Positions 1-30,557 are shown, numbered from the stretch's first letter. The stretch is 64,000 nucleotides of DNA from Nitrospirota bacterium (GCA_023229435.1 JALNZF010000012.1:30086-94085), one strand, 5' to 3'. Notes: generated from the sequence alone by a model not told the origin. Numbers and translations: made by a program.

Positions 1-760
1 ATACTATGTCATAACGCTCGTTCCTGTCCTGGGTCTTGTTCAGGTCGGAGAGCAATCCATGGCGGACCGTTATACCTATCTGCCCAGCCTGGGGCCATTT
101 CTTATTGCCGGGATGGGAGCAGCATATCTTGCGCAAAAATTTCGGCACTCCAAACGAGGAGATACTCTCTCCTCGTTTCTGACTTTGGTCTTGACGCTTT
201 CGATGGCGATTGTCCTCTCCTATGCAACTGTCCGTCAAGCGGGTCTCTGGAGGAATGGCATTACCCTCTGGAGTTCCGTCATTGAGCGGGAACCGACACA
301 GGTGCCCTTTGCCTATCGTCTCCGCGGCCAGGCTTTTGGAAAAGCAGGTCAGTTCGACAGGGCGGCTGCGGATTACAGCAAGGCAATTGCCTTGAACCCC
401 GGGTTCATTGAAACCTATAATGATCTGGGCATGCTCTATGGGAAGGCCGGTCTCTATGAGCAGGCGATAGCGGTCTTCAGCAGGTCGATCTCCCTTGGTC
501 CCGGTCATGCCAAATCGTACAATAATCGGGGTCGTACTTATTTTCACCTTGGTCAATATGGCGAGGCCCTGGATGATCTGAACAGGGCGATCGCGTTAGA
601 TGATACATTCGATGTCGCTTATATTAATCGTGGAGAACTGTATTATCGAACCGGTAAAACAGCACAGGCAGATGCGGATTTTCAGAAAGCATGCGATCTC
701 GGAAACGAAATCGGGTGCACGGCATTGCATCAACTCAGACAAGAATCAAATCCCGAATAG
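1..760 (+). CDS. TMTC-like TPR membrane protein, C-terminal fragment (5' end outside window)
   Basis: In the frame of ORF 59..760, codons 2..58 read YYVITLVPVLGLVQVGEQS, continuous with MADRYTYLPSLGPF. This matches the conserved G(Y)YVVTLIPVLGIVQVG.QSMADRY(T/A)YLPS block of the full-length paralogs at 11379, 13243, 20626 and others. Downstream TPR-like repeats (AYRLRGQAF..AIALNP, TYNDLGMLY, SYNNRGRTYF, AYINRGELYY) and a CDLGNE..C tail resemble the paralogs. Confidence 0.8.
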   Translation, partial: YYVITLVPVLGLVQVGEQSMADRYTYLPSLGPFLIAGMGAAYLAQKFRHSKRGDTLSSFLTLVLTLSMAIVLSYATVRQAGLWRNGITLWSSVIEREPTQVPFAYRLRGQAFGKAGQFDRAAADYSKAIALNPGFIETYNDLGMLYGKAGLYEQAIAVFSRSISLGPGHAKSYNNRGRTYFHLGQYGEALDDLNRAIALDDTFDVAYINRGELYYRTGKTAQADADFQKACDLGNEIGCTALHQLRQESNPE

Positions 761-936
761 CGTGACGCCCTCCGCATAAGATCCATGCGGAAGATCCCTG
801 CTCAGTTAAATCGGAACGTTGGCCGACTTGAGATGCGCTGGCTTGTGGGGGAAGTCCAAGCGAAGGACGTAAAAGAATACGGCTGCGTTCAGCATCTCGC
901 CGATCAGGATACTCCGCCGATCAAACAGACCCTTCC

Positions 937-2691
937 TCACCTGGGAAATTCTGCGAGCGCCTTCTCCAGACTGATCCTGATCTCCGGATCAGAGGGATTC
1001 AGCCGCAATGCCTCGGAATAGTATTTGATGGCTTCTTGTGTTTTCCCTGCCGTTGTTAAAGCGAGCCCCAGATTGTAATGGGCGTCCCCGAGACCAGGGT
1101 CGAGCTGCACGGCTTGTGAGAAATGCTGTATGGCTTCTCCGGCAGATCCCCGTCTGATCAGCGTAATTCCGAGATTATTGTGAACGCGTGCATTCCCCGG
1201 GTCAAGCTGCAGTGATTTCCCATAATATGCGACAGCATCATCCAGCCTTCCAACAATATCAAAATCCGTCGCCATTTTATCGTATACAAAGGCCTCATCA
1301 GGTTTGATCCGTAAGGCCTCGCCATATTGGCGCATTGCTTCACCGTACCTGCCTTGTTTATCAAACGCATCGCCCAGGTTCGTATGAGCAACATAGTTGT
1401 TCTCAGTCACCGCGACGGTATGGGTGAACAGGGCAATGCTGTTTTCCCAGTACTTCAGCTGAATTCGTGCTGAGATCGCGAGCAACAGGACAAGCACACA
1501 ACTGGCGGCCGTCATAAGCATGGTTCGATGGCGCACGCTCGAGGTCGTCTCCGCCGCGCCCCATACCAGCAGGATCGCGAGTCCGATCGATGGAATATAG
1601 GTATACCGGTCAGCCATTGCCTGCAGCCCGACCTGGATCAATCCGATCACCGGGACAAGAGATCCCACAAACCAAAACCAACCCGTCAGTAAAAATGGAT
1701 AACGGCGGGCGAACCATATACATGCCACTGATATGCCCGCCAGAAAAACAAAAGCAAGAATGGCGTGAGTTACGAGAATATGGCCTGGCAGCGGGTAGAG
1801 CACCGCAAGATCCAGAGGCCGGAAGGTCTTCCCCAGGTAGTTCATATAGGCCAGGAACGCGTTGGAGATCCGCTGCATCACCGGATACGCCGGCAGAGAC
1901 AGAAGCGCTTTTGCATCCTTCTGAGCATAGACCGCGATGCCGGAAAAGACTGCTGAAAGGAGAAGGAGCGGCACCTTTTCAGAAAAAAGCCTCACAATGG
2001 ATGCCCTGGTTGCAAGGGCATATGCCGGCTTGCCGGAACCGTGTGGCAATGGTTTGTGCTGCCCTGCATCAAATCGGCAAAAAGGCCAGTAGTCAAGCAG
2101 GAGCAGAAGAAACGGAAGGGTCACGAGCATGGGCTTTGCCATCAAGCCAAGCGCAAAGGATACCATGATCACAAGATATCGCATGATGCTTTGTCGTTCA
2201 ACATAGAATGCGTACGCGAGAAGTGTTGTCATGAAGAAAAAAGCGCTCAAAACATCCTTGCGTTCTGAAACCCAGGCGACCGATTCCACCCGAAGCGGAT
2301 GAAGAGAAAAGATGAGCGCAACCAGGACACTGCGCCAAACGGCGCCTGTTGTCCTGTTCAGGAAAATAAAGAGGAGAAGAGTGGTCAGACCGTGAAGAAT
2401 GACACTGGTGAGATGGTGCCCTCTCGGATTCAGTCCGTAGAGATGCATATCCGCCATGTGAGACAACCACGTCACCGGATTCCAGTTTCCCATGAGTGTT
2501 GTCGTGAAGGCCCATCGAAGGTTCTCGTATGTAAATCCGGTCCGGACGTGAGCATTGCCGGTGACATAGGCAGGATCGTCGTAGTTGATGAATTCATGAT
2601 TGACGGCAGGCCAATACACGGCAACCGTCGTGGCGAACAGAAGCAGTGCGATAATTATAAATTTTGTTTTATCAGTCCGCATAGCGTTCAT
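937..2691 (-). CDS. TMTC-like (DUF1736-type) polytopic membrane protein with C-terminal TPR repeats; putative GT-C protein O-glycosyltransferase
   Basis: 584-aa ORF. N-terminal membrane region carries the TMTC/DUF1736 motifs (YDD..YV.GN, W.P.TWLSH..D..LYGLNP.GHHLTSVILH, HP..VESVAW..ERKD). It has the ADRYTYIPSIG motif and then multiple TPR repeats (AHTNLGDAF, VYDKMATDF, VHNNLGITL, AHYNLGLAL). Confidence 0.8.
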   Translation of the reverse strand: MNAMRTDKTKFIIIALLLFATTVAVYWPAVNHEFINYDDPAYVTGNAHVRTGFTYENLRWAFTTTLMGNWNPVTWLSHMADMHLYGLNPRGHHLTSVILHGLTTLLLFIFLNRTTGAVWRSVLVALIFSLHPLRVESVAWVSERKDVLSAFFFMTTLLAYAFYVERQSIMRYLVIMVSFALGLMAKPMLVTLPFLLLLLDYWPFCRFDAGQHKPLPHGSGKPAYALATRASIVRLFSEKVPLLLLSAVFSGIAVYAQKDAKALLSLPAYPVMQRISNAFLAYMNYLGKTFRPLDLAVLYPLPGHILVTHAILAFVFLAGISVACIWFARRYPFLLTGWFWFVGSLVPVIGLIQVGLQAMADRYTYIPSIGLAILLVWGAAETTSSVRHRTMLMTAASCVLVLLLAISARIQLKYWENSIALFTHTVAVTENNYVAHTNLGDAFDKQGRYGEAMRQYGEALRIKPDEAFVYDKMATDFDIVGRLDDAVAYYGKSLQLDPGNARVHNNLGITLIRRGSAGEAIQHFSQAVQLDPGLGDAHYNLGLALTTAGKTQEAIKYYSEALRLNPSDPEIRISLEKALAEFPR

Positions 2692-2935: not shown

Positions 2936-4912
2936 TCATAGAACAAAGTATGAACAATAGGCCGAAACAGCCCAGCACACGAGGCAGCCGTTGATTGCCG
3001 CCCGCAGCAGCTTGTTTCTTGAAAGAATCTCGAGGCCCGTTACGCATAATATCGCATAGCAAGGGATGAGACCGAGCGTGTACGTCGCTTTTGCGGTACT
3101 CCAAATCGGCACGGTAACGTACATATACAGCAGCGCGGCAACATAAATCCCCATGCACAATACTGAAAAAAGCTGCGCTCGATAAGCCCTGTCCGAAGGT
3201 TTGGCCAGGGTGGTCAGAATGCCTGCGAGTATACCCGCTGTCGGTACCAGAGAGATCAGAGACCCCGAGATCATAAAATTATAATTCCATGGGGGACGGT
3301 ATATATATACACCGATACCGCTCAGACCTCCATCCAGCCAGAGGGTGGAATACAATGAGTCCCAGAATCCATGCACTGCTGAATAAATCGGAGCGGATAG
3401 CGATCGCCCAAAGACGAAGAAATCACCAACTGTCCGATAACCCGGGTCCTGCCACCAGGCCGAAGACTCCCATCCCCCCACAAAAGGTCTGCCGAGCTCT
3501 ATCCAGTTCCGGATGTAATACCAGCCTGATAGAGCAAAAATAATTCCCGTGACCAGCAATACCCTCACTGTTATGTATCTTATGGACTGTTGTCTTTTGT
3601 GCAGTACGTAAATTACGAGCATGACGGCCGGAGGGACGAGCAGAACGGCGGTCACTTTCGTTAAGAGGGAGAGACCCAACGCCGTCCCCAGAAAGAGAAA
3701 GTACCTTTCAGGAATGATCTCCTGTTCGGAGGTAATCAGGAAAATTCCGACAACGACCGCGCATGCTGAAAGAAGCCCCGACAAGGGTTCATTTCCCACG
3801 ACCTGCGAAATATACAGATTCATCGGGAGAAGCCCCCCGACAATAGTCCCCCATATCTGAAGGTCCCGTCGGTTCGGGAATACGTACCGTGTTGCCCGAT
3901 AAGCCAGCTCGACCTGCAGTAAGCCGCAGAGCAAGGGAATGATCCTGAGCAACAGCATAGCGGTAGGGATTTCAAACCAATGTGATAGAGGGAACTGCCA
4001 GGCCAATGCCGAGAGAATGTAATAAAGAGGAGACTGAAACATTTGCCAGCCTTGCGTGGCAAGGGGAACCCTCCCGGTATTAGCGACGTATTCGATGTAT
4101 TCATAATGCTCTTGCACGTCCATTCCGGTTTCTATGGGAAGTTTGAGAATATTATTGACTGCAAGGATTGCCCAAAGTGCCAGAAGAAGCCAACGTATGT
4201 GGGAAGAGGTTGGGCTGAACTTTTCTATCGTTTTTCTCGCTTCCCTCGGCGAAGAGGCAATGAGGGTCAGGAAAAAGACCCCAAGAAAGATGGGTACGTA
4301 AAGTAGTAAGAGAGAAATAAAAGCCCTCCCGGAACCATGAAAATGTTCAGCCAGCTCCGGGTTCTTGTTCATGTCAGCGGGCACAGCCCCGGTCCACAAC
4401 AGCTCATCATAGCTTGCTTCCCACTCGGGCCCGGTAGCCAGCTTGAGCGTTGGGATGTACGCAAGCAAGACCGCCGGTCCGTTCTTGTTAAAAACTCTTA
4501 TGAAAATTTCATGCATCCCCGGACCGAGGATGCCGGTAAGATCGAATATCCGGGCATTCTTCCATCGGCCAAGGTCGGACTCCACCGGCTGGATACGTTT
4601 GCCGTCCAGATATGCTTCCGGATCCCCTAAAGCGCGGATGGTGAGCCTTGTTGCTGAAGGCGCTTGATCGACGCTAAAACGCTTCCGGTATGATACGTGT
4701 TCTCCCTCCCGCTGTGCCTCCATGGCGAACGGCCTGTCGATATATATCCAGGCCGCGCCTTGCTCCGAAAAAAGAAGCGGGGAATCGCCGCCTTTCGTCA
4801 TGAGAAAGAAACCCGCGATGATGACGAGGAGTGCCATAACCAGGCCGGGCAGCAGGATTTTTTTGTTCGGAAATTTCATGTTCGATTTCGTTTCAGGCAA
4901 AGGTACCATCAC
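2936..4912 (-). CDS. GT-C glycosyltransferase, GT39/GT83 (ArnT/PMT)-like, with an extra N-terminal periplasmic domain
   Basis: 658-aa ORF with N-terminal TM, a ~170-aa soluble segment, then ~11-12 TM helices. The first loop motif DVQEHYEYIEYVANTGRVPLATQGWQMFQSPLYYIL resembles the ArnT/PMT signature DE..Y...A..M...G.W..P...G..YFEKPPL.YW. Start uncertain: the tool start is GTG; an alternative ATG at 4879 gives MKFPNKKILLPGLVMALLVI. Confidence 0.6.
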   Translation of the reverse strand: MMVPLPETKSNMKFPNKKILLPGLVMALLVIIAGFFLMTKGGDSPLLFSEQGAAWIYIDRPFAMEAQREGEHVSYRKRFSVDQAPSATRLTIRALGDPEAYLDGKRIQPVESDLGRWKNARIFDLTGILGPGMHEIFIRVFNKNGPAVLLAYIPTLKLATGPEWEASYDELLWTGAVPADMNKNPELAEHFHGSGRAFISLLLLYVPIFLGVFFLTLIASSPREARKTIEKFSPTSSHIRWLLLALWAILAVNNILKLPIETGMDVQEHYEYIEYVANTGRVPLATQGWQMFQSPLYYILSALAWQFPLSHWFEIPTAMLLLRIIPLLCGLLQVELAYRATRYVFPNRRDLQIWGTIVGGLLPMNLYISQVVGNEPLSGLLSACAVVVGIFLITSEQEIIPERYFLFLGTALGLSLLTKVTAVLLVPPAVMLVIYVLHKRQQSIRYITVRVLLVTGIIFALSGWYYIRNWIELGRPFVGGWESSAWWQDPGYRTVGDFFVFGRSLSAPIYSAVHGFWDSLYSTLWLDGGLSGIGVYIYRPPWNYNFMISGSLISLVPTAGILAGILTTLAKPSDRAYRAQLFSVLCMGIYVAALLYMYVTVPIWSTAKATYTLGLIPCYAILCVTGLEILSRNKLLRAAINGCLVCWAVSAYCSYFVL

Positions 4913-4963: not shown

Positions 4964-7900
4964 TCACCTCGCCTCCTGGTCAACTTTCATCTCGACCAGT
5001 CCCTTTATTTTGGGCAGCAGCGAGGTTGTCGACGGGTATTTTTTCCCGGAGGCAACAGCCTTGTTCTGCTCTTCGTAATAGAGCGCCTGAACGCTTTTCA
5101 AAACATCGTCAACAAAGTCAGTAATATATGCTTCTTTATTCGCGCCATGGACTTTTAATTTCCCGAAAACAGTCCGGGTGTTCTGGTCGACGAAAAAGAC
5201 TCTCGCGCTTTCAGGACTGTTCTGTAATAAAACCGCTGAAAATCGTATTTTAACAATCTCCTTTTCATTGATAAGCGTCAATTCGATTTGTTTAAGGAGC
5301 TTCGGTGTTCCCCCGCTTTCTTCAGATGTTTCGTTTTTCAGGAACCGCCAGGGCGCATAAGCGGGGTATTGAGCATCCAGCTCGGCCGTCAGTTTTGCAT
5401 ACTCCGGAGCGTCAGTACGTCCGGCAAGCATCAGCACATGGGCACGATCATCCAGAATAGCGGCGCGTGAATTCTTTTCCCATCGTTCTATCTGCCTGGC
5501 CCGTCCAATCTCATCAACAGGGCTGAGCAGATAGGGGAGGATGCTTTCCCGGTATTTTATCAAGTCGTAGGTATTCGTCCACATAAGATAGCCCTTCCCG
5601 ATGCTCTGGGGAGCGGAAAATTCGAGGTATAAATTGTCGTCCGTATTGATTACTCCTCCGGAACTGTATGCCCTGGCGCCTTCGGTCCCCATCAGGAAAT
5701 AGCTCAGGAAAGCTTCGGCCGACCCCATCTTGACCCGTGCCAGATCCTGCAGGACCTGCGGTTCCCTGATCCGGCGCTCCAGATCCTTTTCGTCAATGAT
5801 GATGGGGGCGTTGCTGCCGATAAGCTCCACGTCATCATGGGTCAGCCATACCATGATGTATGGAAAATTTTGTCTCAGGGTTGCGACAATTGACTTGAGG
5901 TTTTCATCGGAAAGCTCATAGAGGGGGAGCCATTGGCAGACAATGCCGCCCGGATTGAGATGTTCCGCTGCAAGTTTGAAATACTCGGTCGAGTAGAGAT
6001 ACCCGGTCCCGCTGAACCAGGGATGGATCGGATCCGCGGTAATGACATCAAATTTCTCTTTCGTGGTCATCAGGAAATTCCGGCCATCGTTAAAGACGAT
6101 CCTCAGCTTGGGATTGTCCAGGACATAGTGGTTGTAAATACCGAACGTCCTTGCCACACCAAGCACCTTTGGTTCGATCTCGGCGAGCGTGATCTGTTCC
6201 ACGCTCGGGTGCACCGACGTGGCGCCCAGGGTCATGCCGCTGCCCGTGCCGAGCACGAAGACCTTCTTCGGGTTCTTATTGAGCAGCATCGGCAGATGCC
6301 CCAGCGTGTACTGGCATTGCATTCCTTCGTTGCTGTTTGATGCCTCCACCCTGCCGTTGGTGATGAAAGACAGGAACTCCCCCGATTGAATGGAACTTAC
6401 GATCGCCTGGGCGCCCTCACCATAGTAAATGATGTTGGCGGTGTTCATGATTTCCCGGGCCTTCTCCGGCGTGCTGTACATCTCGCGGTGGTTGGACTGA
6501 TAAAGGGCGTAATATTTGATATCCCAGAGCCGCCACATGCCGGGATTCAGAAGCAGGAAAAGAATGACGGCAGCCACAGCGCCGGCTGTCGCCCAATTCA
6601 AGGACTTTTTCCCCTTGATGCTCACCATCACGAGCAGGCCATACCCAATGTTGATCAGGATGATCAACTGCAGGGACAGTTGCAGCCCGAGCAGATAGAT
6701 GAGGACAAAACCGCTCACAGCAGACCCGAGAATGGCCCCGATCGTATTGTAGGACAGGATTTCGCCGACCACCGAACCGACCTGTTTTTTATGCCTGCTG
6801 TGGATGGCGCCGGCCAGCGGGAACGCGATACCCATGAAAAATGCAGGAACAAACAGGAAGGAAAACGCGAGGACAAAATTTACCAGCTGACTCGTTTTGA
6901 ACGGATCAAGATTGGATTTAAGGTTATGAACAGCATCGTAAAGAAACGCTGAATAAGTCGGCAGGTCCCTGATATGGAGCGTTACGAGCAGCGCCGCAAT
7001 GCCGATCATCACCTGGGTAAGTCCAAAACCGATGACCGAATTCAAGCCGTATCCCGTTGTTCCGTCCGGGCGCATTCCCGATCTTTTGATCATCAGACCG
7101 TAGGCCGCGCTCCCGAGACCGATTCCCGTAAGGAAGGCCATCAACAGAAGGGTAAAGCCATAGGTGCTTGCGCCGATTATGATGCTGAGGATCCTGGTCC
7201 ACAGGACCTCGTATCCCAGAGCGCAGAACCCGCTGACGCCAATACCCCAGAGCACCAGCTTGAGCGAGAAAGCGGACACACACGGTTCCTTCGTGTCCCC
7301 CGACAGTGCAGCATCAGTCAGATTCTCATCCCCCCTGTCAGCTTCATCCAGGACCACCTGGGCCTTATTCTGCAGCGCAATACTGAGTATGCCGATCAGC
7401 ACATTGAGCAGCAATGCTGCCGTGATGGTCGTGCTCACCGAATAATAGCGAAGCAGGAAAAAACCGGCTGACGCGGCGCCGACAACAGCTCCCAGCGTAT
7501 TGAATCCATACAGGAAGGAAAGCCGCCGGCCCGGTCCCTTCATGTGGCCGGTCGTGAAGCTCGACAGGACCGGAAGCGTGCCTCCCATGAGCGTGGTGGG
7601 CACGATCATGGCGATTGCAGCCAGTGTAAAACGTATGAACGAGAGGTAAACAGGGGACGTGTCCGCTATCCGGGCAAGAGGGACATACAGCGATGGATAA
7701 AAACGGATCAGGGCAAGAAACACCAGGGCAGATGCGGCAATGCCTAACTCAAGAAATCCGTACAGCCGCAACAATCGGGTGTACCTGCCGGCATACTTGC
7801 CGATCGTGTAGCTCCCGAAGGCGAGACCGCCCATGAAAACAGACAAAACCGTTGTTACCGCCAGGTGGGAGCCGCCAAAGATCAGGCTCAGGTAGCGGAC

Positions 7901-7981
7901 CCATACCACCTCGTACATGAGGGCGGCCGCGCCTGACAGGAAAAAAAGCAGGTAAATAAGACTTAAAATGATTATTTGCAT
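4964..7981 (-). CDS. fused MFS-transporter-like / spermidine-synthase-like (PABS) protein
   Basis: 1005 aa. The N-terminal ~500 aa has ~12 TM helices. The C-terminal half has a class-I MTase/spermidine synthase fold (VFVLGTGSGMTLGATSVHPSVEQITLAEIEPKV, IVFNDGRNFL, DVITADPIHPWFSGTGYLYSTEYF). This is the architecture annotated elsewhere as 'fused MFS/spermidine synthase'. Confidence 0.85.
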   Translation of the reverse strand: MQIIILSLIYLLFFLSGAAALMYEVVWVRYLSLIFGGSHLAVTTVLSVFMGGLAFGSYTIGKYAGRYTRLLRLYGFLELGIAASALVFLALIRFYPSLYVPLARIADTSPVYLSFIRFTLAAIAMIVPTTLMGGTLPVLSSFTTGHMKGPGRRLSFLYGFNTLGAVVGAASAGFFLLRYYSVSTTITAALLLNVLIGILSIALQNKAQVVLDEADRGDENLTDAALSGDTKEPCVSAFSLKLVLWGIGVSGFCALGYEVLWTRILSIIIGASTYGFTLLLMAFLTGIGLGSAAYGLMIKRSGMRPDGTTGYGLNSVIGFGLTQVMIGIAALLVTLHIRDLPTYSAFLYDAVHNLKSNLDPFKTSQLVNFVLAFSFLFVPAFFMGIAFPLAGAIHSRHKKQVGSVVGEILSYNTIGAILGSAVSGFVLIYLLGLQLSLQLIILINIGYGLLVMVSIKGKKSLNWATAGAVAAVILFLLLNPGMWRLWDIKYYALYQSNHREMYSTPEKAREIMNTANIIYYGEGAQAIVSSIQSGEFLSFITNGRVEASNSNEGMQCQYTLGHLPMLLNKNPKKVFVLGTGSGMTLGATSVHPSVEQITLAEIEPKVLGVARTFGIYNHYVLDNPKLRIVFNDGRNFLMTTKEKFDVITADPIHPWFSGTGYLYSTEYFKLAAEHLNPGGIVCQWLPLYELSDENLKSIVATLRQNFPYIMVWLTHDDVELIGSNAPIIIDEKDLERRIREPQVLQDLARVKMGSAEAFLSYFLMGTEGARAYSSGGVINTDDNLYLEFSAPQSIGKGYLMWTNTYDLIKYRESILPYLLSPVDEIGRARQIERWEKNSRAAILDDRAHVLMLAGRTDAPEYAKLTAELDAQYPAYAPWRFLKNETSEESGGTPKLLKQIELTLINEKEIVKIRFSAVLLQNSPESARVFFVDQNTRTVFGKLKVHGANKEAYITDFVDDVLKSVQALYYEEQNKAVASGKKYPSTTSLLPKIKGLVEMKVDQEAR

Positions 7982-11071: not shown

Positions 11072-11378
11072 AGAGAGAGCCGTATCGCACCGGACTTTCT
11101 TGAGATTATATGAACAGAGGACAGCAGCTTCCGGAGGAACTATGAACGGTGCAATAATTTAGTTTGCCGTCAGCCTTGCCATTCAGTTCATGCGAATGCC
11201 GGTTCATGGTGTCGGCATCATACACATATTGTTGAGAGAATTCAAGTCGGATTGCCAAACAAATTGCCTATTGCCATCACCGTGGCACATCTGATATCAT
11301 ACTTTACGCAGAGCGCAGAGAGTTGTTCGAAAAGGCAAACGAAAAAGGCTATCTGGTTTCTCGTGTCAGAGATGGATC

Positions 11379-15288: not shown

Positions 15289-15362
15289 GAGTGCCGCGGA
15301 ACCACCCGCGAGAACGCTATAAAACAACGTCTTATTGTTTTCTCGAATCGTGGAGGTTGAAG

Positions 15363-16982: not shown

Positions 16983-17050
16983 ATAGAACCGAGAAAGCTA
17001 GTAAACTCATTCGCAAGTTACAATTTGCAAAAAACAGGAGCCCTTCAAAC

Positions 17051-18676: not shown

Positions 18677-18736
18677 CAGTAGTGCTATTATATTTTACTT
18701 CATATACTCAGTACAGGGTTTATAAATGGAACTATA

Positions 18737-20398: not shown

Positions 20399-20625
20399 CC
20401 CTTCTCGTTTTGACTTAAACAACTCACCTTCGAGAGGACGCAGGTGCAAGGGGCAGAAAAAAGTTTAACCAGTTGTACTCCAGGAAGCTCTCTGCGTCCT
20501 CCGCGTGATATCCTAAGTTGCCGCTGAATCATGTAGGCTGCCGCGGCGCAGGGTATTGACATCCCGCTCTCTTTGGGGGAGAGCGCGATGAATACAGTCT
20601 TGTGGTTTTTAAATCATCGAGGTTG

Positions 20626-22674: not shown

Positions 22675-22870
22675 CGCATCATACCCCGGAAGGGGGCGAT
22701 GAAGAACGCTACCCAATGCTTTTTAGTAACCGAGGAATCAAATTCTTCTCAGGATGAAAAGAATATTTTGCCGTAAAAGGCACAGAGAACTAAAATAAAC
22801 TGGAGCTTTTTCTTACCGGTGAATCGGCTTCTCTTTGTGCTCCAGGTGAATTCTATGGCGGAGGTTGACG

Positions 22871-24457
22871 GTGCAAAGACCCCGGCTCGGTAAATACTAT
22901 CTTGCAGCATCGATAGCACTAATAACATTCATTGTCTATCTCCCGGCCCTTCACAATGAGTTCGTGTACTGGGACGACAACCTCTACATCTTCGAGAACC
23001 CGAATATCCGGTCGCTCGATGCGGGTTTCTTTCGATGGGCCTTCCTTGAGTTCCACGTAAGCAACTGGCACCCCCTCACCTGGATATCCCATGCCCTTGA
23101 CTACGCCCTCTGGGGGCTGAATCCCCTGGGGCATCATTTGACGAACATCATCCTTCATGCCGTCAACACCGCCCTTGTCGTACTCCTGGCCCTGAAGCTG
23201 CTTGAGTTCGTGAGGGAGCGGTCAGCACGGAATGGTGCCGCCTCGTTCCTGAACAACCGGACGATCCTGATCGCCGCGGGAGCGACGGGTCTGCTGTTCG
23301 GCATCCATCCCGTACATGTGGAATCCGTGGCCTGGGTGTCGGAGCGGAAGGACCTGTTGTGCGCCCTGTTCTTCCTGATGAGCGTCATCAGTTATGCGAA
23401 CTATGTGTCCTATAAGACGTATAAGACCTATATGCTCACTCTTGGGTTCTTTGTCCTTGCGCTGATGAGCAAGCCCATGGCGGTGAGCCTTCCCGTGGTG
23501 CTGCTGATCCTGGACTGGCATCCGTTCAGCAGGATCCGGTCTCTAAGAACGGCATGGGCATCCATTGTCGAGAAACTTCCCTTTATTTTTTTGAGTCTGC
23601 TTGCCTCCCTGCTCACGATTCTGGCGCAAAGAGAGGGAAATTCCATGGCATCCCTGGAATTTGTGCCATTATCAACCCGCCTGTTGGTAGCAGGCCAGTC
23701 CCTCGTTGTGTATATACAGAAGATGCTGCTGCCCCTGAATCTCATGCCTTTGTATATCTATCCAAAGGACGTGTCCCTGTTCTCGTTCAAGTATGTATCA
23801 ACGCTTCTTCTGGTGATGGGTACTACAGCGATCTGCGCGGTCCTTGCGCGGAAACGGAAAAGCTGGCTGTCCGTCTGGGGCTTCTATGTGATAACGCTCA
23901 TACCCGTCCTCGGCATCATCCAGGTAGGGAACCAGCCCATGGCGGACCGGTATGCGTATTTGCCCAGCCTTGGCCCCTTCCTGCTTGCGGGCGCAGGCGC
24001 GGCATGGATCTCTGAAAAGGCGCTCAGGGAAGAACGACGGGGACTGTTTATCAGGGGAGTCGGCATCATCATTGCCCTTCTTTTGGTTTTTTCCCTGTCC
24101 TATCTGACCGCCAGGCAAACTGCCGTATGGAAGGACAGTCTCAGCCTCTGGACATATGTCATCGAGAAGGAGCCCGGAAAGATCCCCCTGGCCTATAATA
24201 ATCGCGGTATGGTATTCTACAAAGCCGGTGTGTTTGACAAGGCGATTGCGGACTTCGATCGCGCCATTGGCATGGATCCGGAATATGCAAAGGCCTACTA
24301 TAACCGCGGATCAACGTATGATAAAATGGGCGAGCTTGACAAGGCGATCGCTGACTACAGAAAAACAATTTCACTGGACCCGTATTATTATGAAGCCCAT
24401 TATTTTCTCGATCAAGCCTTGGAAAAGACCGGTCAGGCTGACAAGCGAACGCGATGA
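22871..24457 (+). CDS. TMTC-like TPR membrane protein (paralog)
   Basis: A conserved GGAGGTTGACGGTG context places a GTG start at 22871 (the tool start is TTG at 22865). Motif set as in the paralogs. Shorter TPR tail. Confidence 0.8.
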   Translation: MQRPRLGKYYLAASIALITFIVYLPALHNEFVYWDDNLYIFENPNIRSLDAGFFRWAFLEFHVSNWHPLTWISHALDYALWGLNPLGHHLTNIILHAVNTALVVLLALKLLEFVRERSARNGAASFLNNRTILIAAGATGLLFGIHPVHVESVAWVSERKDLLCALFFLMSVISYANYVSYKTYKTYMLTLGFFVLALMSKPMAVSLPVVLLILDWHPFSRIRSLRTAWASIVEKLPFIFLSLLASLLTILAQREGNSMASLEFVPLSTRLLVAGQSLVVYIQKMLLPLNLMPLYIYPKDVSLFSFKYVSTLLLVMGTTAICAVLARKRKSWLSVWGFYVITLIPVLGIIQVGNQPMADRYAYLPSLGPFLLAGAGAAWISEKALREERRGLFIRGVGIIIALLLVFSLSYLTARQTAVWKDSLSLWTYVIEKEPGKIPLAYNNRGMVFYKAGVFDKAIADFDRAIGMDPEYAKAYYNRGSTYDKMGELDKAIADYRKTISLDPYYYEAHYFLDQALEKTGQADKRTR

Positions 24458-24559
24458 ACCCTTTCGCATGAACGTTGAGAGATCAAAGCATGACGCCTTG
24501 CAGTCCGGTTTATTCAGTTATACTGTCCCATCGTTTGCTCAAGATTCTGGAGGTTAAGG

Positions 24560-26479
24560 GTGCAACGAACCCGGCTCGTTAAATATTCTCTTGCTGCTGC
24601 GACAGCCCTGCTGACGTTTATCGTCTATCTTCCGGCCCTTCGCAATGAATTCGTGAACTGGGATGATATGCGGTATATTGTCGAAAACCCCGATATTCGT
24701 TCATTCGATGCGGCGTTTTTTCGATGGGCGTTCCTTGGTTTCCATATAGGCAACTGGCACCCTCTCACCTGGATATCCCATGCCCTTGACTACGCAATCT
24801 GGGGACTGAATCCCCTGGGGCATCACCTGACGAACATCATCCTGCATGCAGTCAACACCGCTTTCGTTGTTGTGCTGGCCCTGAAGCTGCTCGATTTTAT
24901 GAGGGAGCGGTCAGCACAGAATGGTGCCGCCTCATTCCTGAACAACCGGACGATCCTGATAGCGGCGGGAGCGACGGGACTGTTGTTCGGCATCCATCCC
25001 GTGCATGTGGAATCCGTGGCCTGGGTCGCGGAGCGGAAGGACCTGTTGTGCGCATTATTTTTTCTGCTGAGTATCATCTGGTATGCGCACTATGTGTCCT
25101 CTAAGACGTATAAGACCTATATGCTCACTCTCGGGTTTTTCGTCCTTGCACTGATGAGCAAGCCCATGGCGGTGAGCCTTCCCGTGGTGCTGCTGATCCT
25201 GGACTGGCATCCGTTCAGCAGGATCCGGTCTCTCAGAACAGCAGGGGTCTCTTTTGTCGAGAAACTTCCCTTTATCTTGCTCAGTATTGCGTCATCGGTC
25301 CTGACTATTCTTGCACAGAGGACGGAAGGGGCCATGGCATCAACTGAGGTCGTCCCCTTGTCCATCCGAATGCTCGTTGCGGCAAAATCCCTTATCCTGT
25401 ATTTGGGGAAGATGATCGTGCCAATGGATCTGATCCCCTTCTACCCCTATCCGAAGGATGTATCGCCCGCCTCGTTCGCGTATCTTTCAACGCTTGCCCT
25501 GATGATCGCGATCACGGCGGCCTGCGTGATCATTGCAAAAAGAAATCGCTCCTGGCTCTCGGCATGGGGATATTATGTCGTGACCCTGCTCCCCGCGCTC
25601 GGCATTGTCCAGGTGGGGGCGCAGGCCATGGCGGACCGGTATACGTATCTGCCCAGCCTCGGACCGTTCCTGATCATTGGTTCAATCGCGGCCTGGACCT
25701 CGGCCAAAATCCAGGAACGATGGGGAGTGAGCAGACAACGCTTGTTGAACGCCGGAGTCCTGCTTATATTCGGTCTTCTGTCTTATGCTACAATACAGCA
25801 GACCCGGATATGGCATGACAGCGTAACCTTCTGGAGCTATGAACTGGAAAAAGAGCCTGATGCGAATATCGCCTATGTGAACCGGGGGGAGGCCTTCGCG
25901 AAGCGTGGTCAGTTGGACAAGGCGATCAGGGATTTCACAGAGGCGATTTCCCGAAAACCGTCCGATTATAAGGCATTCTACAACCGGGGCATCCTGTTCT
26001 CGAAATTGAACCTCGTTTCTCAGGCGCTGGCCGACTACAGCGAGGCGATTGCGCTGAAACCGTCGTATTATGATGCCTATAATAGCCGGGGCGCGTTGTA
26101 TGCAAAACGGGAACAGTTTGACAAGGCACTTGCGGATTACACTGCGGCGATCTCGATCGATCCATCGCGCAGCCAGGCGTACATGAACAGAGGTCTGACG
26201 TATGACAGGGCGGGGCAGGTGGACAAAGCGCGTGCGGATTTCGATAAGGCGATAGCCCTCGATCCAAACAATGCCGATGCCTATTACAACCGGGGATTGT
26301 TCTTCAACAAGGCAGGAAGGCTCGATGCCGCGCTCGCGGACCTGGACCGGGCCATCACTCTGAATCCGGGAGATCCTGATGCCTATTACAATCGGGGGGT
26401 GGTGTTTCAGAAAACGGGACAGGTCGATAAGGCAGATCAAGACTTTCTGCTCTGGAAGGAACATTCTGCAAGTCAATAA
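24560..26479 (+). CDS. TMTC-like TPR membrane protein (paralog)
   Basis: GGAGGTTAAGGGTG context with GTG start at 24560. 639 aa. Nine TPRs in the tail. Shares near-identical ~85-nt tracts with 22871..24457. Confidence 0.8.
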   Translation: MQRTRLVKYSLAAATALLTFIVYLPALRNEFVNWDDMRYIVENPDIRSFDAAFFRWAFLGFHIGNWHPLTWISHALDYAIWGLNPLGHHLTNIILHAVNTAFVVVLALKLLDFMRERSAQNGAASFLNNRTILIAAGATGLLFGIHPVHVESVAWVAERKDLLCALFFLLSIIWYAHYVSSKTYKTYMLTLGFFVLALMSKPMAVSLPVVLLILDWHPFSRIRSLRTAGVSFVEKLPFILLSIASSVLTILAQRTEGAMASTEVVPLSIRMLVAAKSLILYLGKMIVPMDLIPFYPYPKDVSPASFAYLSTLALMIAITAACVIIAKRNRSWLSAWGYYVVTLLPALGIVQVGAQAMADRYTYLPSLGPFLIIGSIAAWTSAKIQERWGVSRQRLLNAGVLLIFGLLSYATIQQTRIWHDSVTFWSYELEKEPDANIAYVNRGEAFAKRGQLDKAIRDFTEAISRKPSDYKAFYNRGILFSKLNLVSQALADYSEAIALKPSYYDAYNSRGALYAKREQFDKALADYTAAISIDPSRSQAYMNRGLTYDRAGQVDKARADFDKAIALDPNNADAYYNRGLFFNKAGRLDAALADLDRAITLNPGDPDAYYNRGVVFQKTGQVDKADQDFLLWKEHSASQ

Positions 26480-26516
26480 CAGCAATTAATTCACCGGGGA
26501 ATACGAACAGTACAAA

Positions 26517-28895
26517 ATGGATAAATTATATAAACAGAAAAGTCTTCTCTTGTTTCACAAGTTGTTGCCGGCAATTCAGAAGCACAAGCTTTCCTTCATA
26601 TGGGTTTCAGCCATAGCTGTCGGGACACTCCTGCCCGCGGCACTGTCTCTCGCATCGGGCCACACGCTGGTTTGGCGTGATACTTCGAAACTGTTTCAGC
26701 CTATCCGGCCTCTCATTGTGGAAGCGTTGAGAAATTTTCAACTGCCGCTGTGGAACCCCCATGAAGCTCTCGGCATCCCGCTTTTCGCGCAAATGATGCA
26801 TGGCGTCCTTCATCCAATATCAGTGATGGGGGCCTTCCTGTTTCCTCAAGCCGGCATGGATGTTTTTATTCTTATCTACATCATGCTTGCTGCCCTGGGG
26901 AGCGCGCTGCTGGCACGCATTCTCGGCGCTTCATGGGGAGCGGCCGCCATTACAGGCTTCGGCTACGGACTCTCGGGATACGTGCTGGGCATGGGCTCGA
27001 TCATCCAGTATCTGTGCGCGGCCGCCAGCGCCCCGTGGGCTCTCATCGGATTGCGCATGGCAGGAGAAAATCGGCGCTTCGGGATTGTTGCTGCGGCGTC
27101 CGCCATTGCTGTCCTCCATTTTGCCGGAGACCCCGAGTGGTCGATTATAGCCATTATACTCGGCATTGCTTTGGCGATTGAGGCGGGCGGGCGGCGGGGT
27201 CTCATCTACGCATTACTCGGTATTGCGATCGGAACCGCGCTCGCCGGGATCCAGTTGATACCAACAATGGCATATTTCCGCGAAGCGTCTCGTGCCATTG
27301 AACTTGACCCCCTTGACCGCATGCAATGGGCGCTTGCGCCCTGGAGAATCGTCGAATTTATCGTTCCGGGTTTTTTTGGCAGTCCCGGTATAGGATTGGA
27401 AAAATGGTCTGTATTCATGTGGCTCGGCGGACTTGTCCGGTCCGGGTTCGAAATGCCCTTTGTTCCAAGTGTCTTTGTAGGGGCGGGCATTCTGGTATTG
27501 GCCGCAGCGGGCCTCTCACATTCACGCGTAACCCGAATATTCGGCATTGCCTCGCTCATACTTTTGTGGCTTGCGCTCGGGACCAATGCCGGGGCCGAAC
27601 AGCTTCTGCATTACATTCCGATCTGGGGTAAATTTCGTTACTCGGAAAAGTTGGTTGGGCCTCTGACGCTTTGTCTTTCGATCCTTGCCGCGTTCGGCGC
27701 AGATCGGTTATCAAACCAACCTTCGCGGTTTCGGGCAGTTCTTGCGGGCGCTGCAGGTATTGCGTGCCTGCTCTTATCCATATTCATAGCGAATTGGCAG
27801 GGCTTCGAGCTATTCTTCCTGGAGACCGCTGCGCGTGATGCGGCTCCCTCTCTTCGACATAATCTTGCAACCGGGCTTGTGCATGCCGCTCTGATGCTCC
27901 TCGCGATCACATGCCTTATTGCCGCCGCCCGTCGTTGGCATCACGTACGGGTTCACTTCCCTGCGGCAGCTGCCGGGCTGGTTTTTTTACAATTGTCGCT
28001 TGCCGCTCCGTTTGCGATGCACACCGGGGAGCGCGCTGTCCGTGATGATCATCCCTTGTCACAGATTGCAAATACCGGAGAACTCCCAAGAATAGCAACA
28101 CCGCTCGAAAGAAACTATCTTTACCCGGCAGAACTCAATCAATTCGATGCCCAGATCGGCGTTCAGTCGCACATGGGAGTGCCTTCCTATAATGTTCCGT
28201 CACACATTGATCAGCTGGACACCTATACCGGCTTACGACCCCGGCGTTTCGAATTGCTCCTCCGCACGTTATCTAAAGAGTTCGGGGTTCAGTCCGTTCT
28301 TGCCTTGCGGCGTTATGCAGTCACGCACATGATGATCAAGAATCCTTATTTTGAGGATGAAACCGCAGTTGCAAATGCAGCGAGCGCGGGAGGGGTGAAG
28401 GTATTAAACAACAATGAATGGGGTTTTTCGGGATGGAAGGTGCCTCATCGTCCCTGGACGTTTTTTGCGGAGCAGATGGTGATCGCCCGAGGTGAAAAGG
28501 AGGCACTCAATACCCTCGTTGAAACGCTGGAGCGCGGGGGATCAACAGTAGTTCTCGAAGATGCGCCGCAATCGAACGAGTTAGCCGCAGGACAGGTTCT
28601 TGATATTGTGCGAAGCAGCGACGCTTTAAGGATCGAGGCCACGTCCCGCGCCAACGGCATTCTTGTTGTCAACGACTCGTATTGGCCCGGCTGGAGGGCA
28701 ACCATCGACGGGAAAGACGTGCCGATATGGCGCGCTGATTTCATCGTTCGCGCCATGCCATGGCCTGCGGGCCATCATGTGCTCGAGATGAAGTATGATC
28801 CACCGGAGGTGCGGATAGGATGGCTCATCAGCTTGCTTGGCGCTATCGCGCTTATTGCAGCGTCGGTTTTTGAGTTGAGAAGAAAACGATCATAA
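26517..28895 (+). CDS. YfhO-family polytopic membrane protein (GT-C-like glycosyltransferase)
   Basis: 792 aa with many TM helices. N-terminal LPLWNPHEALGIPLFAQ matches the YfhO 'PLWNPY.FSG.P' signature. The C-terminal ILVVNDSYWPGWRATIDGKDVPIWRADFIVRAMPWPAGHHVLEMKYDPPE matches the YfhO C-terminal 'SY.PGWKA.VDGK...RAN..F..V.VP.G.H.VE..Y.P' block. Confidence 0.75.
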   Translation: MDKLYKQKSLLLFHKLLPAIQKHKLSFIWVSAIAVGTLLPAALSLASGHTLVWRDTSKLFQPIRPLIVEALRNFQLPLWNPHEALGIPLFAQMMHGVLHPISVMGAFLFPQAGMDVFILIYIMLAALGSALLARILGASWGAAAITGFGYGLSGYVLGMGSIIQYLCAAASAPWALIGLRMAGENRRFGIVAAASAIAVLHFAGDPEWSIIAIILGIALAIEAGGRRGLIYALLGIAIGTALAGIQLIPTMAYFREASRAIELDPLDRMQWALAPWRIVEFIVPGFFGSPGIGLEKWSVFMWLGGLVRSGFEMPFVPSVFVGAGILVLAAAGLSHSRVTRIFGIASLILLWLALGTNAGAEQLLHYIPIWGKFRYSEKLVGPLTLCLSILAAFGADRLSNQPSRFRAVLAGAAGIACLLLSIFIANWQGFELFFLETAARDAAPSLRHNLATGLVHAALMLLAITCLIAAARRWHHVRVHFPAAAAGLVFLQLSLAAPFAMHTGERAVRDDHPLSQIANTGELPRIATPLERNYLYPAELNQFDAQIGVQSHMGVPSYNVPSHIDQLDTYTGLRPRRFELLLRTLSKEFGVQSVLALRRYAVTHMMIKNPYFEDETAVANAASAGGVKVLNNNEWGFSGWKVPHRPWTFFAEQMVIARGEKEALNTLVETLERGGSTVVLEDAPQSNELAAGQVLDIVRSSDALRIEATSRANGILVVNDSYWPGWRATIDGKDVPIWRADFIVRAMPWPAGHHVLEMKYDPPEVRIGWLISLLGAIALIAASVFELRRKRS

Positions 28896-28928
28896 TAGAA
28901 ACATCGTGCGCAATTCATCAGGGGACAA

Positions 28929-30557
28929 ATGATAATGAATACCTCGGTTAATGTACGTATCTCACAGAAGCGTACGCTGTTATCTGTTCTGGTAATCCTA
29001 TTGGTCGCCGGTGGTATCTATGCCAACAGCCTTTCCAATGGCTTCGTCCTGGACGATGAACTAATTATCGCGGGTAATCCCGCAACCCGCCATTTGAGCG
29101 GCATCGGCGATGTGCTCTTTTCTCCCGATGTCATTAAACCCTATTACCGTCCCCTGAACCGCGCAAGCTACCTGATCGACTACCAGTTGTTCGGCCTCAA
29201 TCCCGCCTGGTTTCACGCAATCAACATCATCATCCACGCGCTGAGTGCGGTCCTGCTGTATCTGGTCGCCTCCCGTCTGCTGGCTGACAACTACGCCGCT
29301 CTGTTCGCGGCGCTGCTGTTCGCGGTGCATCCCGCCAACAGCGAAGCGATCAATTTCATTTCAGCACGGAACACGCTCCTGGCGGGATGCTTCAGCCTTG
29401 CGTCGCTGCTCGCCTTCATGAAGGCCCGCGAGAAGGGCGTACGCCTGCCTTTCCTTTCGGCGTTTCTGTTCTTTCTCGGACTTCTCAGCAAGGAGACCGC
29501 GTTCATGCTGCTTGTAGTAATCGCCGTTTACACGTTCTCCCCGTCTCCCTGGTTTGTCGGGAAAAAGCTGCGGGACCGGTTGATCTCTCTGGTCCCGTAT
29601 CTGGCCGCGGTGGTTGTTTATTTCGCGATGCGTTTCTATTCTCTGCAGGGCATGTTCGGGACCGACATCACCGGCGGAAATCTCTTCAGCCGTCTCGCGA
29701 TGAATTATCACATCATTCCCCAATATATCGGACTGCTGTTGTTCCCGATTGACCTGACAATTTTTCATACAGCGTTAAAGGGAGGTTTCGCGACGCATCT
29801 CGCAATATGGATAGCGCTTTTCATTGCGGTCTGGCTCTGGCTGGTGGCGCGCCGGCGCAATCAAGCAGCCCTGTTCGGCCTGGTTTGGTGCGTGGTCAAT
29901 TATGCGCCGATATCCAATATTGTTCCGATCCCGAGCGAGGCATTTACCGAGCGATTTCTGTACATGCCTGCGATCGGGTTCTTCATTATTGCGGGCGCGT
30001 GCTTTGAACGTCTTCAGGCTGAAGGCAGTCTTAAAAAGGCTGTAAAGCCCGTTGCGGTCCTTCTGTTGCTGCTGTGCGCCGCAATGGCCTTCCAGCGGAA
30101 CCGTGACTGGATGAATGATTACACCCTGTTTGCGAGCGGAGTAAAGAACGACCCCGCCTCAGCTGAGGCCCGCTTCAATCTCGGCACTGCCCTTTTGCAG
30201 GATAAAAACGATAGCGAGGCGGCACGCCGGGAATGGGAAGCAGCGCTGAGCCTGGACCCCCGCCACGCGGATGCGCTTATGCAGATGGGGACCTATGCGG
30301 CAATGACGGGTGACCTGCGGAAGGCCGAGCAGTTTTACCTGTCAGCATTAGCCGCGCCTCCCGGCAGGAGCGACCCGGACAAGTGCATGGCGCATTTCAA
30401 TCTGGGAAAAATTTATGAAAAGCAGCGGCGGCCCCAAGAGGCCCTGCAGCAATATGAATTGTTCCTCAACTATGTCAGCCTGCGCTATAATGAATATACG
30501 CCTGTTGCTGCACAAAGGGCGGCACATTTGCGTATTGGAGTTACTAAGAATAAGTAA
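28929..30557 (+). CDS. TMTC-like TPR membrane protein (most divergent paralog)
   Basis: 542 aa. Motifs: FVLDDELIIAGNP, YYRPLNRASYLIDYQLFGLNPAWFHAINIIIH, HPANSEAINF. The TPR-like C-terminus includes ARFNLGTAL and AHFNLGKIY. Confidence 0.7.
   Translation: MIMNTSVNVRISQKRTLLSVLVILLVAGGIYANSLSNGFVLDDELIIAGNPATRHLSGIGDVLFSPDVIKPYYRPLNRASYLIDYQLFGLNPAWFHAINIIIHALSAVLLYLVASRLLADNYAALFAALLFAVHPANSEAINFISARNTLLAGCFSLASLLAFMKAREKGVRLPFLSAFLFFLGLLSKETAFMLLVVIAVYTFSPSPWFVGKKLRDRLISLVPYLAAVVVYFAMRFYSLQGMFGTDITGGNLFSRLAMNYHIIPQYIGLLLFPIDLTIFHTALKGGFATHLAIWIALFIAVWLWLVARRRNQAALFGLVWCVVNYAPISNIVPIPSEAFTERFLYMPAIGFFIIAGACFERLQAEGSLKKAVKPVAVLLLLLCAAMAFQRNRDWMNDYTLFASGVKNDPASAEARFNLGTALLQDKNDSEAARREWEAALSLDPRHADALMQMGTYAAMTGDLRKAEQFYLSALAAPPGRSDPDKCMAHFNLGKIYEKQRRPQEALQQYELFLNYVSLRYNEYTPVAAQRAAHLRIGVTKNK

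Follow-up and report, generated by a model that had tools for sequence, protein, structure and literature searches.

Several systems glycosylate acceptors outside the cytoplasm with sugars carried on a lipid. In the three-component systems GtrA/GtrB/GtrC of Shigella and Salmonella phages and CsbB/YfhO, a small family 2 glycosyltransferase (GT2) makes a polyprenyl-phosphate monosaccharide and a polytopic GT-C enzyme transfers the sugar outside the cytoplasm; GT-C enzymes can share a donor, and the best-known acceptors of Gtr-type systems are O-antigens and teichoic acids. The actinobacterial Ppm1/Pmt (GT39) and Streptococcus mutans Pgf (PgfS, PgfM1, PgfM2) systems combine a polyprenyl-phosphate-sugar synthase with GT-C enzymes to O-glycosylate exported proteins, while the eukaryotic TMTC1-4 proteins (CAZy GT105) are protein O-mannosyltransferases of the endoplasmic reticulum that act on cadherins. 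Here we describe a 64,000-nucleotide stretch of a Nitrospirota genome (GCA_023229435.1, JALNZF010000012.1:30086-94085; hereafter the window) carrying a block of TMTC-type genes next to genes for OmcS-type cytochrome nanowires. The block probably encodes a periplasmic glycosylation system dependent on a lipid carrier, similar to Gtr, Ppm1/Pmt and Pgf, with an expanded arm of GT-C enzymes bearing tetratricopeptide repeats (TPRs), and most likely O-glycosylating exported proteins.

The window is part of a 93.6-kb contig in a metagenome-assembled genome (MAG) of a Nitrospirota organism ('Nitrospirae bacterium'; habitat groundwater or sediment) and was mapped from an open reading frame (ORF) listing with Pfam and NCBIfam scans (Table 1). 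A block of about 34 kb holds 13 GT-C or GT-C-like genes, namely ten TMTC-type, two PMT_2/ArnT-like and one YfhO-like, together with two spermidine-synthase fusions; an eleventh TMTC-type gene, K, lies 21 kb downstream. A first-pass annotation of the window had reported twelve TMTC-like paralogs in 1-30557, one of them truncated by the window edge. A dense block of proteins with a polytopic N-terminal core and C-terminal TPRs is indeed present, and positions 2-760 are the tail of a 597-amino-acid (aa) protein, but the count falls to ten (nine complete and one edge-cut) and the boundaries move. On its upstream side the block extends some 3.5 kb beyond the first position of the window, where a methyltransferase gene and two GT2 genes (contig read as L002) belong to it, hence its functional extent of about 34 kb. 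On the whole, what had been observed was confirmed in part and its interpretation was partly supported.

At the level of sequence, significant homology of the membrane domain showed the 11 paralogs (A to K) to be genuine members of the TMTC family, beyond mere resemblance, with profile scores far from those of the controls. A profile of the bacterial core scored 110-146 bits against seven TMTC core sequences (human, fly and zebrafish TMTC1-4, from the alignment supplement of PMC7801869). The reciprocal profile of the seven eukaryotic proteins scored 76-117 bits against all 11 paralogs, with J the highest (116.9 bits), and hhalign aligned the bacterial and eukaryotic families over 374 columns at 26% identity (probability 99.94%, E 3.2e-37). 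As controls, the island's remaining three GT-C-like proteins and both spermidine-synthase fusions scored 3.3 bits or less in the TMTC profile test. The earlier classification as TMTC-family GT-C proteins is thus upheld. Paralogy among the bacterial proteins was likewise far above chance (membrane-core hidden Markov model, E about 1e-70 to 1e-189).

Paralog C was modelled with AlphaFold2 on the basis of 36 sequences, with a pLDDT (predicted local distance difference test) of 87 and a pTM (predicted template modelling score) of 0.85. The model comprises 11 long hydrophobic helices followed by ten TPR helices, and its fold is similar to those of solved GT-C enzymes. The core profile had 0 matches among PDB sequences, and PDB sequence and fold searches turned up no TMTC entry. 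From the Lys-rich N-terminus and the odd number of transmembrane (TM) helices, we infer that the TPR domains face the periplasm.

With motifs numbered M1-M7 as for the human TMTCs (PMC7801869), the DD of M1 was found as (W/Y/F/L)DD in the first extracytoplasmic loop of all 11 paralogs, including LDD in the full-length form of A. The human SHKSYRP of M2 is partially kept as NWHPL (YYRPL in J), and the RxD of M3 reads ERKD in nine of the 11, J and K keeping the Arg only. KE(T/Q)xxT of M4 is represented by SKPMAVT, in which the Lys is invariant and the Glu is replaced by Pro except in J (SKET) and K (TKEF). The DW of M5 is aligned with Y-P and is not conserved in the core clade, while ERxxY of M7 corresponds to ADRYxY (TERFLY in J), with (D/E)RxxY in ten of the 11. 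The core motifs quoted in the first-pass annotation, YDD/WDDN (here (W/Y/F/L)DD), W.PLTW.SH..DY..WGLNP.G.H..N, HPV.VESVAW..ERKD and QVG.Q.MADRY.YLPS, were all present in the alignment.

The ten complete paralogs share invariant D36, D37, H90, H97, H147, P148, R160, K202, Y364 and P366, and nine of them retain R361. Conservation was also assessed in 158 family ORFs from 80 genomes of many phyla, the denominators being the aligned sequences: D36 was present in 154/154, D37 in 149/154, H97 in 155/155, H147 in 154/155, R160 in 152/155, K202 in 155/155, R361 in 149/151 and Y364 in 151/151. The acidic loop residues, whose absence had been named beforehand as one refuting condition, are therefore kept in 11/11 paralogs and are near-universal in relatives. 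Judged by these residues, the paralogs look like active enzymes.

As a side observation, J and K keep KE in loop 3, unlike the other nine paralogs, and an Asp at the DW position is apparently kept only in K; the motifs YYRPL, SKET and TERFLY of J are eukaryote-like. J and K may be closest to the lineage that gave the eukaryotic TMTCs.

A linked polyprenol-phosphate-sugar synthase, for which a search had been advised, was found in the form of two GT2 genes directly upstream of paralog A. Their products resemble dolichol-phosphate-mannose synthase (DPMS), ArnC, AglJ and PpgS, that is, families that charge polyprenyl phosphate with one sugar; the island GT2 genes also match PgfS. A gene for an S-adenosylmethionine (SAM)-dependent methyltransferase accompanies two DPMS-like GT2 genes in four further loci (L005, L018, L059 and L084) and on a JGI contig, and this co-travel hints at a methylated sugar or a methylated donor. 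In L005, from another Nitrospirota MAG, the order is methyltransferase-GT2-GT2-YfhO-x-TMTCx3. The JGI contig (91 kb) is syntenic throughout and has a GtrA-like fragment (62 aa, PF04138) between its two GT2 genes. On a 310-kb contig (L167), a YfhO gene is followed by a gene for a 386-aa GtrB-like GT2 with a GT2_TM_C tail, then by a J-like gene and an NHL gene.

The pairing also occurs in reduced form. A gene for a GT2 of 227-245 aa stands beside the K ortholog of Citrifermentans bemidjiense (P0237, L084) and beside those of a Geobacteraceae MAG and of a 544-kb contig. On the 544-kb contig (L086:9103-11848), the GT2 gene (229 aa) and the K-type gene (615 aa) form an isolated cassette among thiamine and cobalamin genes, and these two genes are the minimal form of the system. 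Overall, DPMS-like GT2 genes were found in about 16 of 80 TMTC-type loci.

The family is widespread. Searching with the core of paralog C gave at least 5,428 proteins below E 1e-3, and a scan of one genome per species gave at least 591 relatives, distributed over Nitrospirota, Desulfobacterota (including Geobacter sp. OR-1), Planctomycetota, Verrucomicrobiota, Acidobacteriota, Hydrogenedentota and Ca. Magnetobacterium. Most are annotated just as 'TPR repeat protein', and JGI names many of them 'protein O-mannosyl-transferase'. Among 48 sampled loci longer than 15 kb, a single copy was present in 23, two copies in 10, three in 6, four in 3, five in 4, six in 1 and eight in 1. Tandem arrays of 2-8 copies thus occur in 25/48 loci, from Nitrospirota, Desulfobacterota, Planctomycetota, Verrucomicrobiota and Acidobacteriota, the densest (L010) having 8 copies within 18 kb. 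The present array is large yet not exceptional. The uniqueness implied by the statement that this is not a described system in bacteria does not stand, since arrays are common across phyla, JGI already names members and a 2025 preprint notes related clusters. What is seen here is instead a known enzyme family in a bacterial form with many paralogs, placed in a pathway whose logic is also known.

Individual paralogs have their own orthologs in other metagenomes, with identities of 82% (A), 86% (C), 77% (E), 84% (G), 87% (H), 90% (K), 70% (D) and 69% (I). Within the window, pairwise identity is lower, at 26-73% for the membrane domains and 21-55% for the TPR domains. The paralogs are therefore old and have been individually retained, which argues for distinct roles. 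Direct DNA repeats with 61-83% identity over 300-nt registers connect the core-clade genes, and the two genes for the spermidine-synthase fusions share 80-84% DNA identity in direct repeats; the block therefore grew by tandem duplication. The earlier suggestion that differing TPR tails serve separate substrates is in keeping with this retention and divergence, as expected of diverged specificities, its protein acceptors being putative. Counted with an iterated consensus-TPR profile, the arrays contain 2-6 repeats, not the 3 to about 9 given before.

By homology with the known systems, the two cytoplasmic GT2 enzymes would load single sugars from nucleotide sugars onto undecaprenyl phosphate, and the neighbouring methyltransferase may modify the sugar. 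The lipid-linked sugar would then be flipped to the periplasmic face by a flippase whose gene was not seen in the locus. There the 13 GT-C or GT-C-like enzymes and K, for which fold, homology and residues are described above, would use the donor. In the TMTC-type enzymes, the Asp-Asp pair after TM1 is predicted to act on the acceptor, and the invariant Lys (SKP/SKE) and the Arg of (D/E)RxxY to hold the donor phosphate, as proposed for human TMTCs. In analogy with TMTC and OGT, the periplasmic TPR domain, which is more divergent than the core, would select the acceptor, so that each paralog would O-glycosylate Ser/Thr residues of a different set of exported proteins; OmcS-type subunits and their companions are candidates. 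We infer a protein acceptor chosen by the TPR domain as the most economical solution given the only characterised relatives.

Several observations weigh against this scheme. The literature yielded no experimental study of any bacterial TMTC-type member, and no demonstrated activity, donor sugar or acceptor. No paralog matched Pfam DUF1736 (PF08409), even at E<=10 with isolated membrane domains, and the DUF1736 label of the first-pass annotation had to be dropped. The Glu of KE(T/Q)xxT, a proposed metal ligand of TMTCs, is Pro in 9/11 paralogs and 121/155 relatives, and the other proposed ligand, the Asp of DW, is aligned with Tyr/Pro in the core clade. The chemistry may therefore differ from that of TMTCs, and metal binding as proposed for TMTCs may be absent. 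No GtrA-family flippase (PF04138) was detected among the called genes of L001/L002, in which the intergenic gaps are too short for one. The donor GT2 genes are not part of the window itself, and some 12 kb separates them from the main + strand run of transferase genes downstream. The protein acceptor is itself an analogy, because TPR domains also occur in polysaccharide-export proteins. Moreover, an ORF with four or more heme motifs was present in just 4/80 TMTC-type loci, a weak cytochrome linkage family-wide.

With the same enzymology, the acceptors could instead be glycans or lipids (O-antigen, exopolysaccharide, lipopolysaccharide core or peptidoglycan), each paralog adding a side-branch sugar at its own position, in the manner of the serotype-converting GtrC enzymes, and the TPRs serving as scaffolds toward export machinery. 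The GT2 plus GT-C logic is that of Gtr-type systems, the YfhO-type and ArnT-type enzymes of the block come from families that modify teichoic acids and lipid A, and Planctomycetota, Verrucomicrobiota and Acidobacteriota commonly have arrays that show no connection with cytochromes. Nevertheless, TMTC1-4, the only characterised relatives of this architecture, act on proteins (PMC7801869), and neither the 64-kb window nor the 9 kb upstream contains Wzx/Wzy, ABC-exporter or polysaccharide-synthase genes. In addition, divergence is faster in the TPR domains than in the core, which would be expected of modules that recognise proteins. Glycan or lipid acceptors are considered unlikely.

The location of the array raises a second possibility, namely that it is a dedicated maturation system supplying surface glycans to the adjacent OmcS-type nanowires and their companions. 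Surface glycosylation of the OmcS and OmcE filaments of G. sulfurreducens has been seen by cryo-electron microscopy (PMC9473688). In Geobacter and Geomonas, OmcE clusters are followed by glycosylation clusters with GT2/4/39, methyltransferase and TPR genes, which the authors of the preprint tie to filament glycan densities (bioRxiv 10.1101/2025.10.22.684050); PMC10954620 is silent on TPRs and glycosylation. The island lies between upstream cytochrome and maturation genes and a downstream OmcS cluster, K sits inside that cluster, with its gene order repeated in L026, and the junction of TMTC-type gene, NHL gene and OmcS gene recurs in L008 and L167. These two loci are not independent evidence, because they come from close relatives of the source organism.

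Counts were made on the 37 loci of at least 6 kb among 80 OmcS-homolog loci retrieved from metagenomes. A TMTC-type gene was present in 8/37 and some component of the set in 12/37, counts that have no background rate and from which enrichment is neither established nor claimed. The remaining 29/37 have no TMTC-type gene in the sequence available, whereas an NHL homolog stands beside the OmcS homolog in 27/37, making the NHL protein a much more constant OmcS partner than any glycosyltransferase. Conversely, only 2/80 TMTC-type loci include an OmcS homolog, and K-type orthologs form GT2 plus GT-C cassettes distant from any cytochrome. The association between TMTC-type and OmcS genes is recurrent but facultative. 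A system dedicated to nanowires seems as improbable as one acting on glycans, while the neighbouring OmcS-type subunits and their companions, which had been proposed as targets, are plausible but unproven candidates for the broader system favored here.

A bolder extension of the favored reading is a combinatorial bacterial O-glycosylation, in which the TPR domain of each paralog would pick its own exported protein, including OmcS nanowires and other electron-transfer parts, and the eukaryotic TMTC pathway would derive from this ancient prokaryotic family and its DPMS-like partner. We regard this full version as doubtful, a shade more so than the two alternatives above. Oligosaccharyltransferases of the PglB type, transferring a glycan en bloc from undecaprenyl pyrophosphate, are a very unlikely identity for the TMTC-type proteins: TMTCs are the specific homologs in sequence, a monophosphate-sugar synthase of the DPMS/GtrB type is the partner that recurs, and the locus has no set of glycan-assembly GT-A/GT-B enzymes, initiating phosphoglycosyltransferase or Wzx flippase. 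Finally, most paralogs might have no catalytic activity and serve as TPR scaffolds or as chaperones in the assembly of envelope proteins. This would fit the annotation of many relatives just as 'tetratricopeptide repeat protein', PilF or TadD and the loss of the TMTC metal-binding Glu and Asp in the core clade, but is scarcely credible: conservation of the loop-1 DD, of the His residues and of Arg160, Lys202, Arg361 and Tyr364 is complete or almost complete across paralogs and phyla, a pattern unexpected of pseudo-enzymes.

Within the TMTC-type set, the visible part of paralog A translates as QVGEQSMADRYTYLPS, followed by its 4 TPRs, and the gene is complete in L002. Paralog F is the only one to pass the PMT_2 (PF13231) cut-off of 26.1 bits, with 31.9-33.7 bits. 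Paralog B remains below it (22.8-24.9 bits; E 2.6e-5 on the membrane domain) and scored 80.8 bits against the eukaryotic TMTC profile; the other nine paralogs had no PMT_2 match. Orthologs of K in Citrifermentans and Geomonas are 52-55% identical to it and stand next to a small GT2 gene; those of H reach 83-87%.

Table 1. Features of the glycosylation block and its surroundings. Positions refer to the window unless prefixed L002; 5mlz is the structure of Pyrococcus DPMS and 6ef8 that of OmcS.
Feature	Position	Strand	Description
SAM-dependent methyltransferase	L002:15491-16198	-	235 aa; ~3.5 kb upstream of window position 1
GT2	L002:14555-15262		235 aa; outside window, ~0.8 kb upstream of paralog A; 5mlz E 2e-19; ArnC E 8e-15 to 3e-14; AglJ E 2e-36
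GT2	L002:13756-14505		249 aa; outside window, 31 nt upstream of paralog A; PpgS E 8e-20; 5mlz E 7e-9
Paralog A	2..760	+	C-terminal 252 codons of edge-cut TMTC-type TPR glycosyltransferase; 4 TPRs; full form P0118, 597 aa
Paralog B	937..2691	-	584 aa; divergent subfamily, 37-43% identical to core clade; 4 TPRs
PMT_2 / GT39-83-like GT-C	2936..4912	-	658 aa (647 aa annotated); N-terminal extracytoplasmic domain of ~200 aa
Fused polytopic / spermidine-synthase-like protein	4964..7981	-	1005 aa
Fused polytopic / spermidine-synthase-like protein, second copy	8057..11071	-	1004 aa; 74.7% identical to first
Paralog C	11379..13136	+	585 aa; core clade; 4 TPRs; protein used for structure model
Paralog D	13243..15288	+	681 aa; core clade; 6 TPRs
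Paralog E	15291..16982	+	Core clade; 2 TPRs; likely start 15363, giving 539 aa (P0060)
ArnT/PMT-like GT-C	16967..18676	+	569 aa; annotated start 17051, giving 541 aa; small C-terminal alpha/beta domain
Paralog F	18737..20398	+	553 aa; divergent subfamily; 2-3 TPRs
Paralog G	20602..22674	+	690 aa (681 aa as annotated); core clade; 6 TPRs
Paralog H	22865..24457	+	530 aa; core clade; 2-3 TPRs
Paralog I	24560..26479	+	639 aa; core clade; 6 TPRs
YfhO-like polytopic protein, probable GT-C	26517..28895	+	792 aa
Paralog J	28929..30557	+	542 aa; most divergent island paralog; 2-3 TPRs
Secreted NHL propeller	30848-31837	+	329 aa; signal peptide; no PEP-CTERM tail
OmcS homolog	32564-33868	+	Against OmcS 6ef8: E 2e-128, residues 26-434 aligned to 1-407, the whole mature protein
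OmcS homolog	34389-35684	+	
Paralog K	51445..53268	+	607 aa; 4 TPRs; after multiheme and NHL genes of OmcS cluster; beyond 1-30557
Further OmcS homolog	at 55111	-	
Further OmcS homolog	at 58955	-	

Positions 11379-30557 form a single co-directional run on the + strand, in the order C, D, E, 569-aa protein, F, G, H, I, 792-aa protein and J, with gaps ranging from a 16-nt overlap up to about 200 nt. Scans of 11000-30900 gave 24 promoter-like sites (17.5±4.2 in shuffled sequence) and 22 terminator-like sites (21.5±5.4), neither above expectation. The sole site of note was a 10/12 promoter-like match at 11271-11300, in the divergent intergenic region. A 554-aa ORF at 9047-10711(+) was rejected as a probable shadow ORF, being antisense within a spermidine-synthase-like gene and uncalled in the contig annotation. 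A 238-aa ORF at 53299-54015(-) is probably no gene, having an implausible translation and no family match.

Three other polytopic proteins of the block were examined; PDB sequence searches with each of them singly returned only noise. The 658-aa protein had been described as a GT39/83-like enzyme. Its own PMT_2 match (20.6 bits) is below the cut-off, but homologs that share 43-79% identity with it have PF13231 or PF09913 and go under the names GT family 39 or ArnT-like; C-terminal TPRs are present in some of them. The 569-aa protein, noted earlier as a further polytopic protein, has no family match itself and is ArnT/PMT-like through its homologs, 38/55 of which match PMT_2; it has 2,678 relatives among cluster representatives and an invariant DD after TM1. 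The 792-aa protein had been placed in the YfhO family, a membership that was not secured: it scored 28.0 bits against Pfam YfhO (PF09586; cut-off 28.5), through its C-terminal 72 residues and the last ~75 model positions only. Counterparts in L005 and L085 scored 24.9 and 26.9 bits with the same C-terminal pattern, a YfhO match at E<=1e-5 is on record for the equally placed L167 counterpart, and weak PgfM1/PgfM2 matches were also seen. The protein is thus YfhO-like and a probable GT-C enzyme by sequence similarity, an assignment that is unproven.

The two spermidine-synthase fusions would be needed to bring the TMTC paralogs of 1-30557 to twelve and were rejected, having no TPR and a negative score against the core profile. 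They consist of a 12-14-TM domain, a spermidine-synthase-like Rossmann domain and an unassigned tail of about 290 aa. The first copy matched NCBIfam NF037959 (fused MFS/spermidine synthase) at 137.1 bits (cut-off 40) and Pfam Spermine_synth at E 3e-25. Its Rossmann domain aligned with 1uir, a Thermus polyamine aminopropyltransferase, at E 1e-20. Motif I is LGTGSG, as against GGGEG at the aligned site of 1uir, and SAM may therefore take the place of decarboxylated SAM as cofactor. Homologs of these proteins also adjoin OmcS homologs (L107, L110 and L152) and TMTC-type genes (L015 and the 91-kb JGI contig).

On the upstream side, cytochrome-maturation-type genes flank the glycosylation block. 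In window orientation the order is multiheme cytochrome, CcmH-like TPR protein, thioredoxin-TPR protein, cytochrome, methyltransferase (235 aa), GT2 (235 aa), GT2 (249 aa) and paralog A; the thioredoxin-fold and CcmH-like TPR proteins, between two multiheme cytochrome genes, occupy L002:17692-19355. On the downstream side, 36027-51211(+) encodes, in order, a beta-propeller, a 750-aa protein with no family match, an LpoB-like protein, a 1583-aa protein with six MBG_3 domains, a peptidyl-prolyl isomerase, two large multiheme cytochromes and an NHL protein. This gene content, taken with the first two OmcS homologs, is like that of the Geobacter osc (OmcS companion) operon as PMC13194489 summarises it, and the region looks like a Nitrospirota version of that operon. 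A link to PEP-CTERM/exosortase, raised by weak ScyF and PrsT matches, was rejected: the 329-aa NHL protein has no PEP-CTERM tail, and the PrsT match is generic TPR similarity. At the far end of the window, a histone-deacetylase-family protein (61573-62499(+), E 4e-91) and a BglII-type restriction endonuclease (62917-63576(+), E 2e-48) are apparently unrelated.

The family represents a large, little-explored set of bacterial enzymes, with tandem arrays in many phyla. Human TMTCs are disease-linked, and their compact bacterial homologs, some in GT2 plus GT-C cassettes, are tractable for studies of structure, donor and acceptor selection. The enzymes that glycosylate Geobacter OmcS and OmcE are not named in the literature surveyed; the K-type orthologs of Citrifermentans and Geomonas and the six-copy array of Geobacter sp. 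OR-1 (L023) are candidates.

Compared with the described systems, the paralogs are closest to TMTC1-4 in their homologous membrane domain, in the 11 TM helices followed by TPRs on the non-cytoplasmic side, and in the motifs DD in loop 1, (S/N)x(Y/W)(R/H)PL, HP(V/I)H(T/V)E(A/S)V, RxD, K in loop 3 and (D/E)RxxY(L/M)PS in loop 5. They differ in that the TPRs (2-6) face the periplasm, the carrier would be undecaprenyl and not dolichyl phosphate, the core clade has Pro and Tyr/Pro where Glu and Asp are the proposed metal ligands, and the TM7-TM8 loop is too divergent for Pfam DUF1736. In addition, the 11 paralogs are clustered, whereas vertebrates have four dispersed ones.

With Gtr and CsbB/YfhO, the present loci share the recurring adjacency of GT2 and GT-C genes; here, however, the locus has no GtrA gene, the GT-C arm comprises 13 or more genes with TPR domains, and the acceptors are, by analogy, probably proteins instead of O-antigen or teichoic acid. 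Ppm1/Pmt and Pgf are alike in their polyprenyl-phosphate-sugar synthase and GT-C partners, to which the PgfS-matching GT2 enzymes, the YfhO-like protein with its weak PgfM1/M2 similarity and the two PMT_2/ArnT-like proteins correspond. Those systems use one or two GT-C enzymes with no TPRs, whereas the main transferases here belong to the TMTC family. The clusters following OmcE in Geobacter and Geomonas likewise adjoin a nanowire cluster with GT2, GT39, methyltransferase and TPR genes, but concern OmcE in Desulfuromonadia, not OmcS-type subunits in Nitrospirota; their account is a one-paragraph synteny note that does not include the TMTC homology, the paralog array or the pairing with a donor synthase (bioRxiv 10.1101/2025.10.22.684050).

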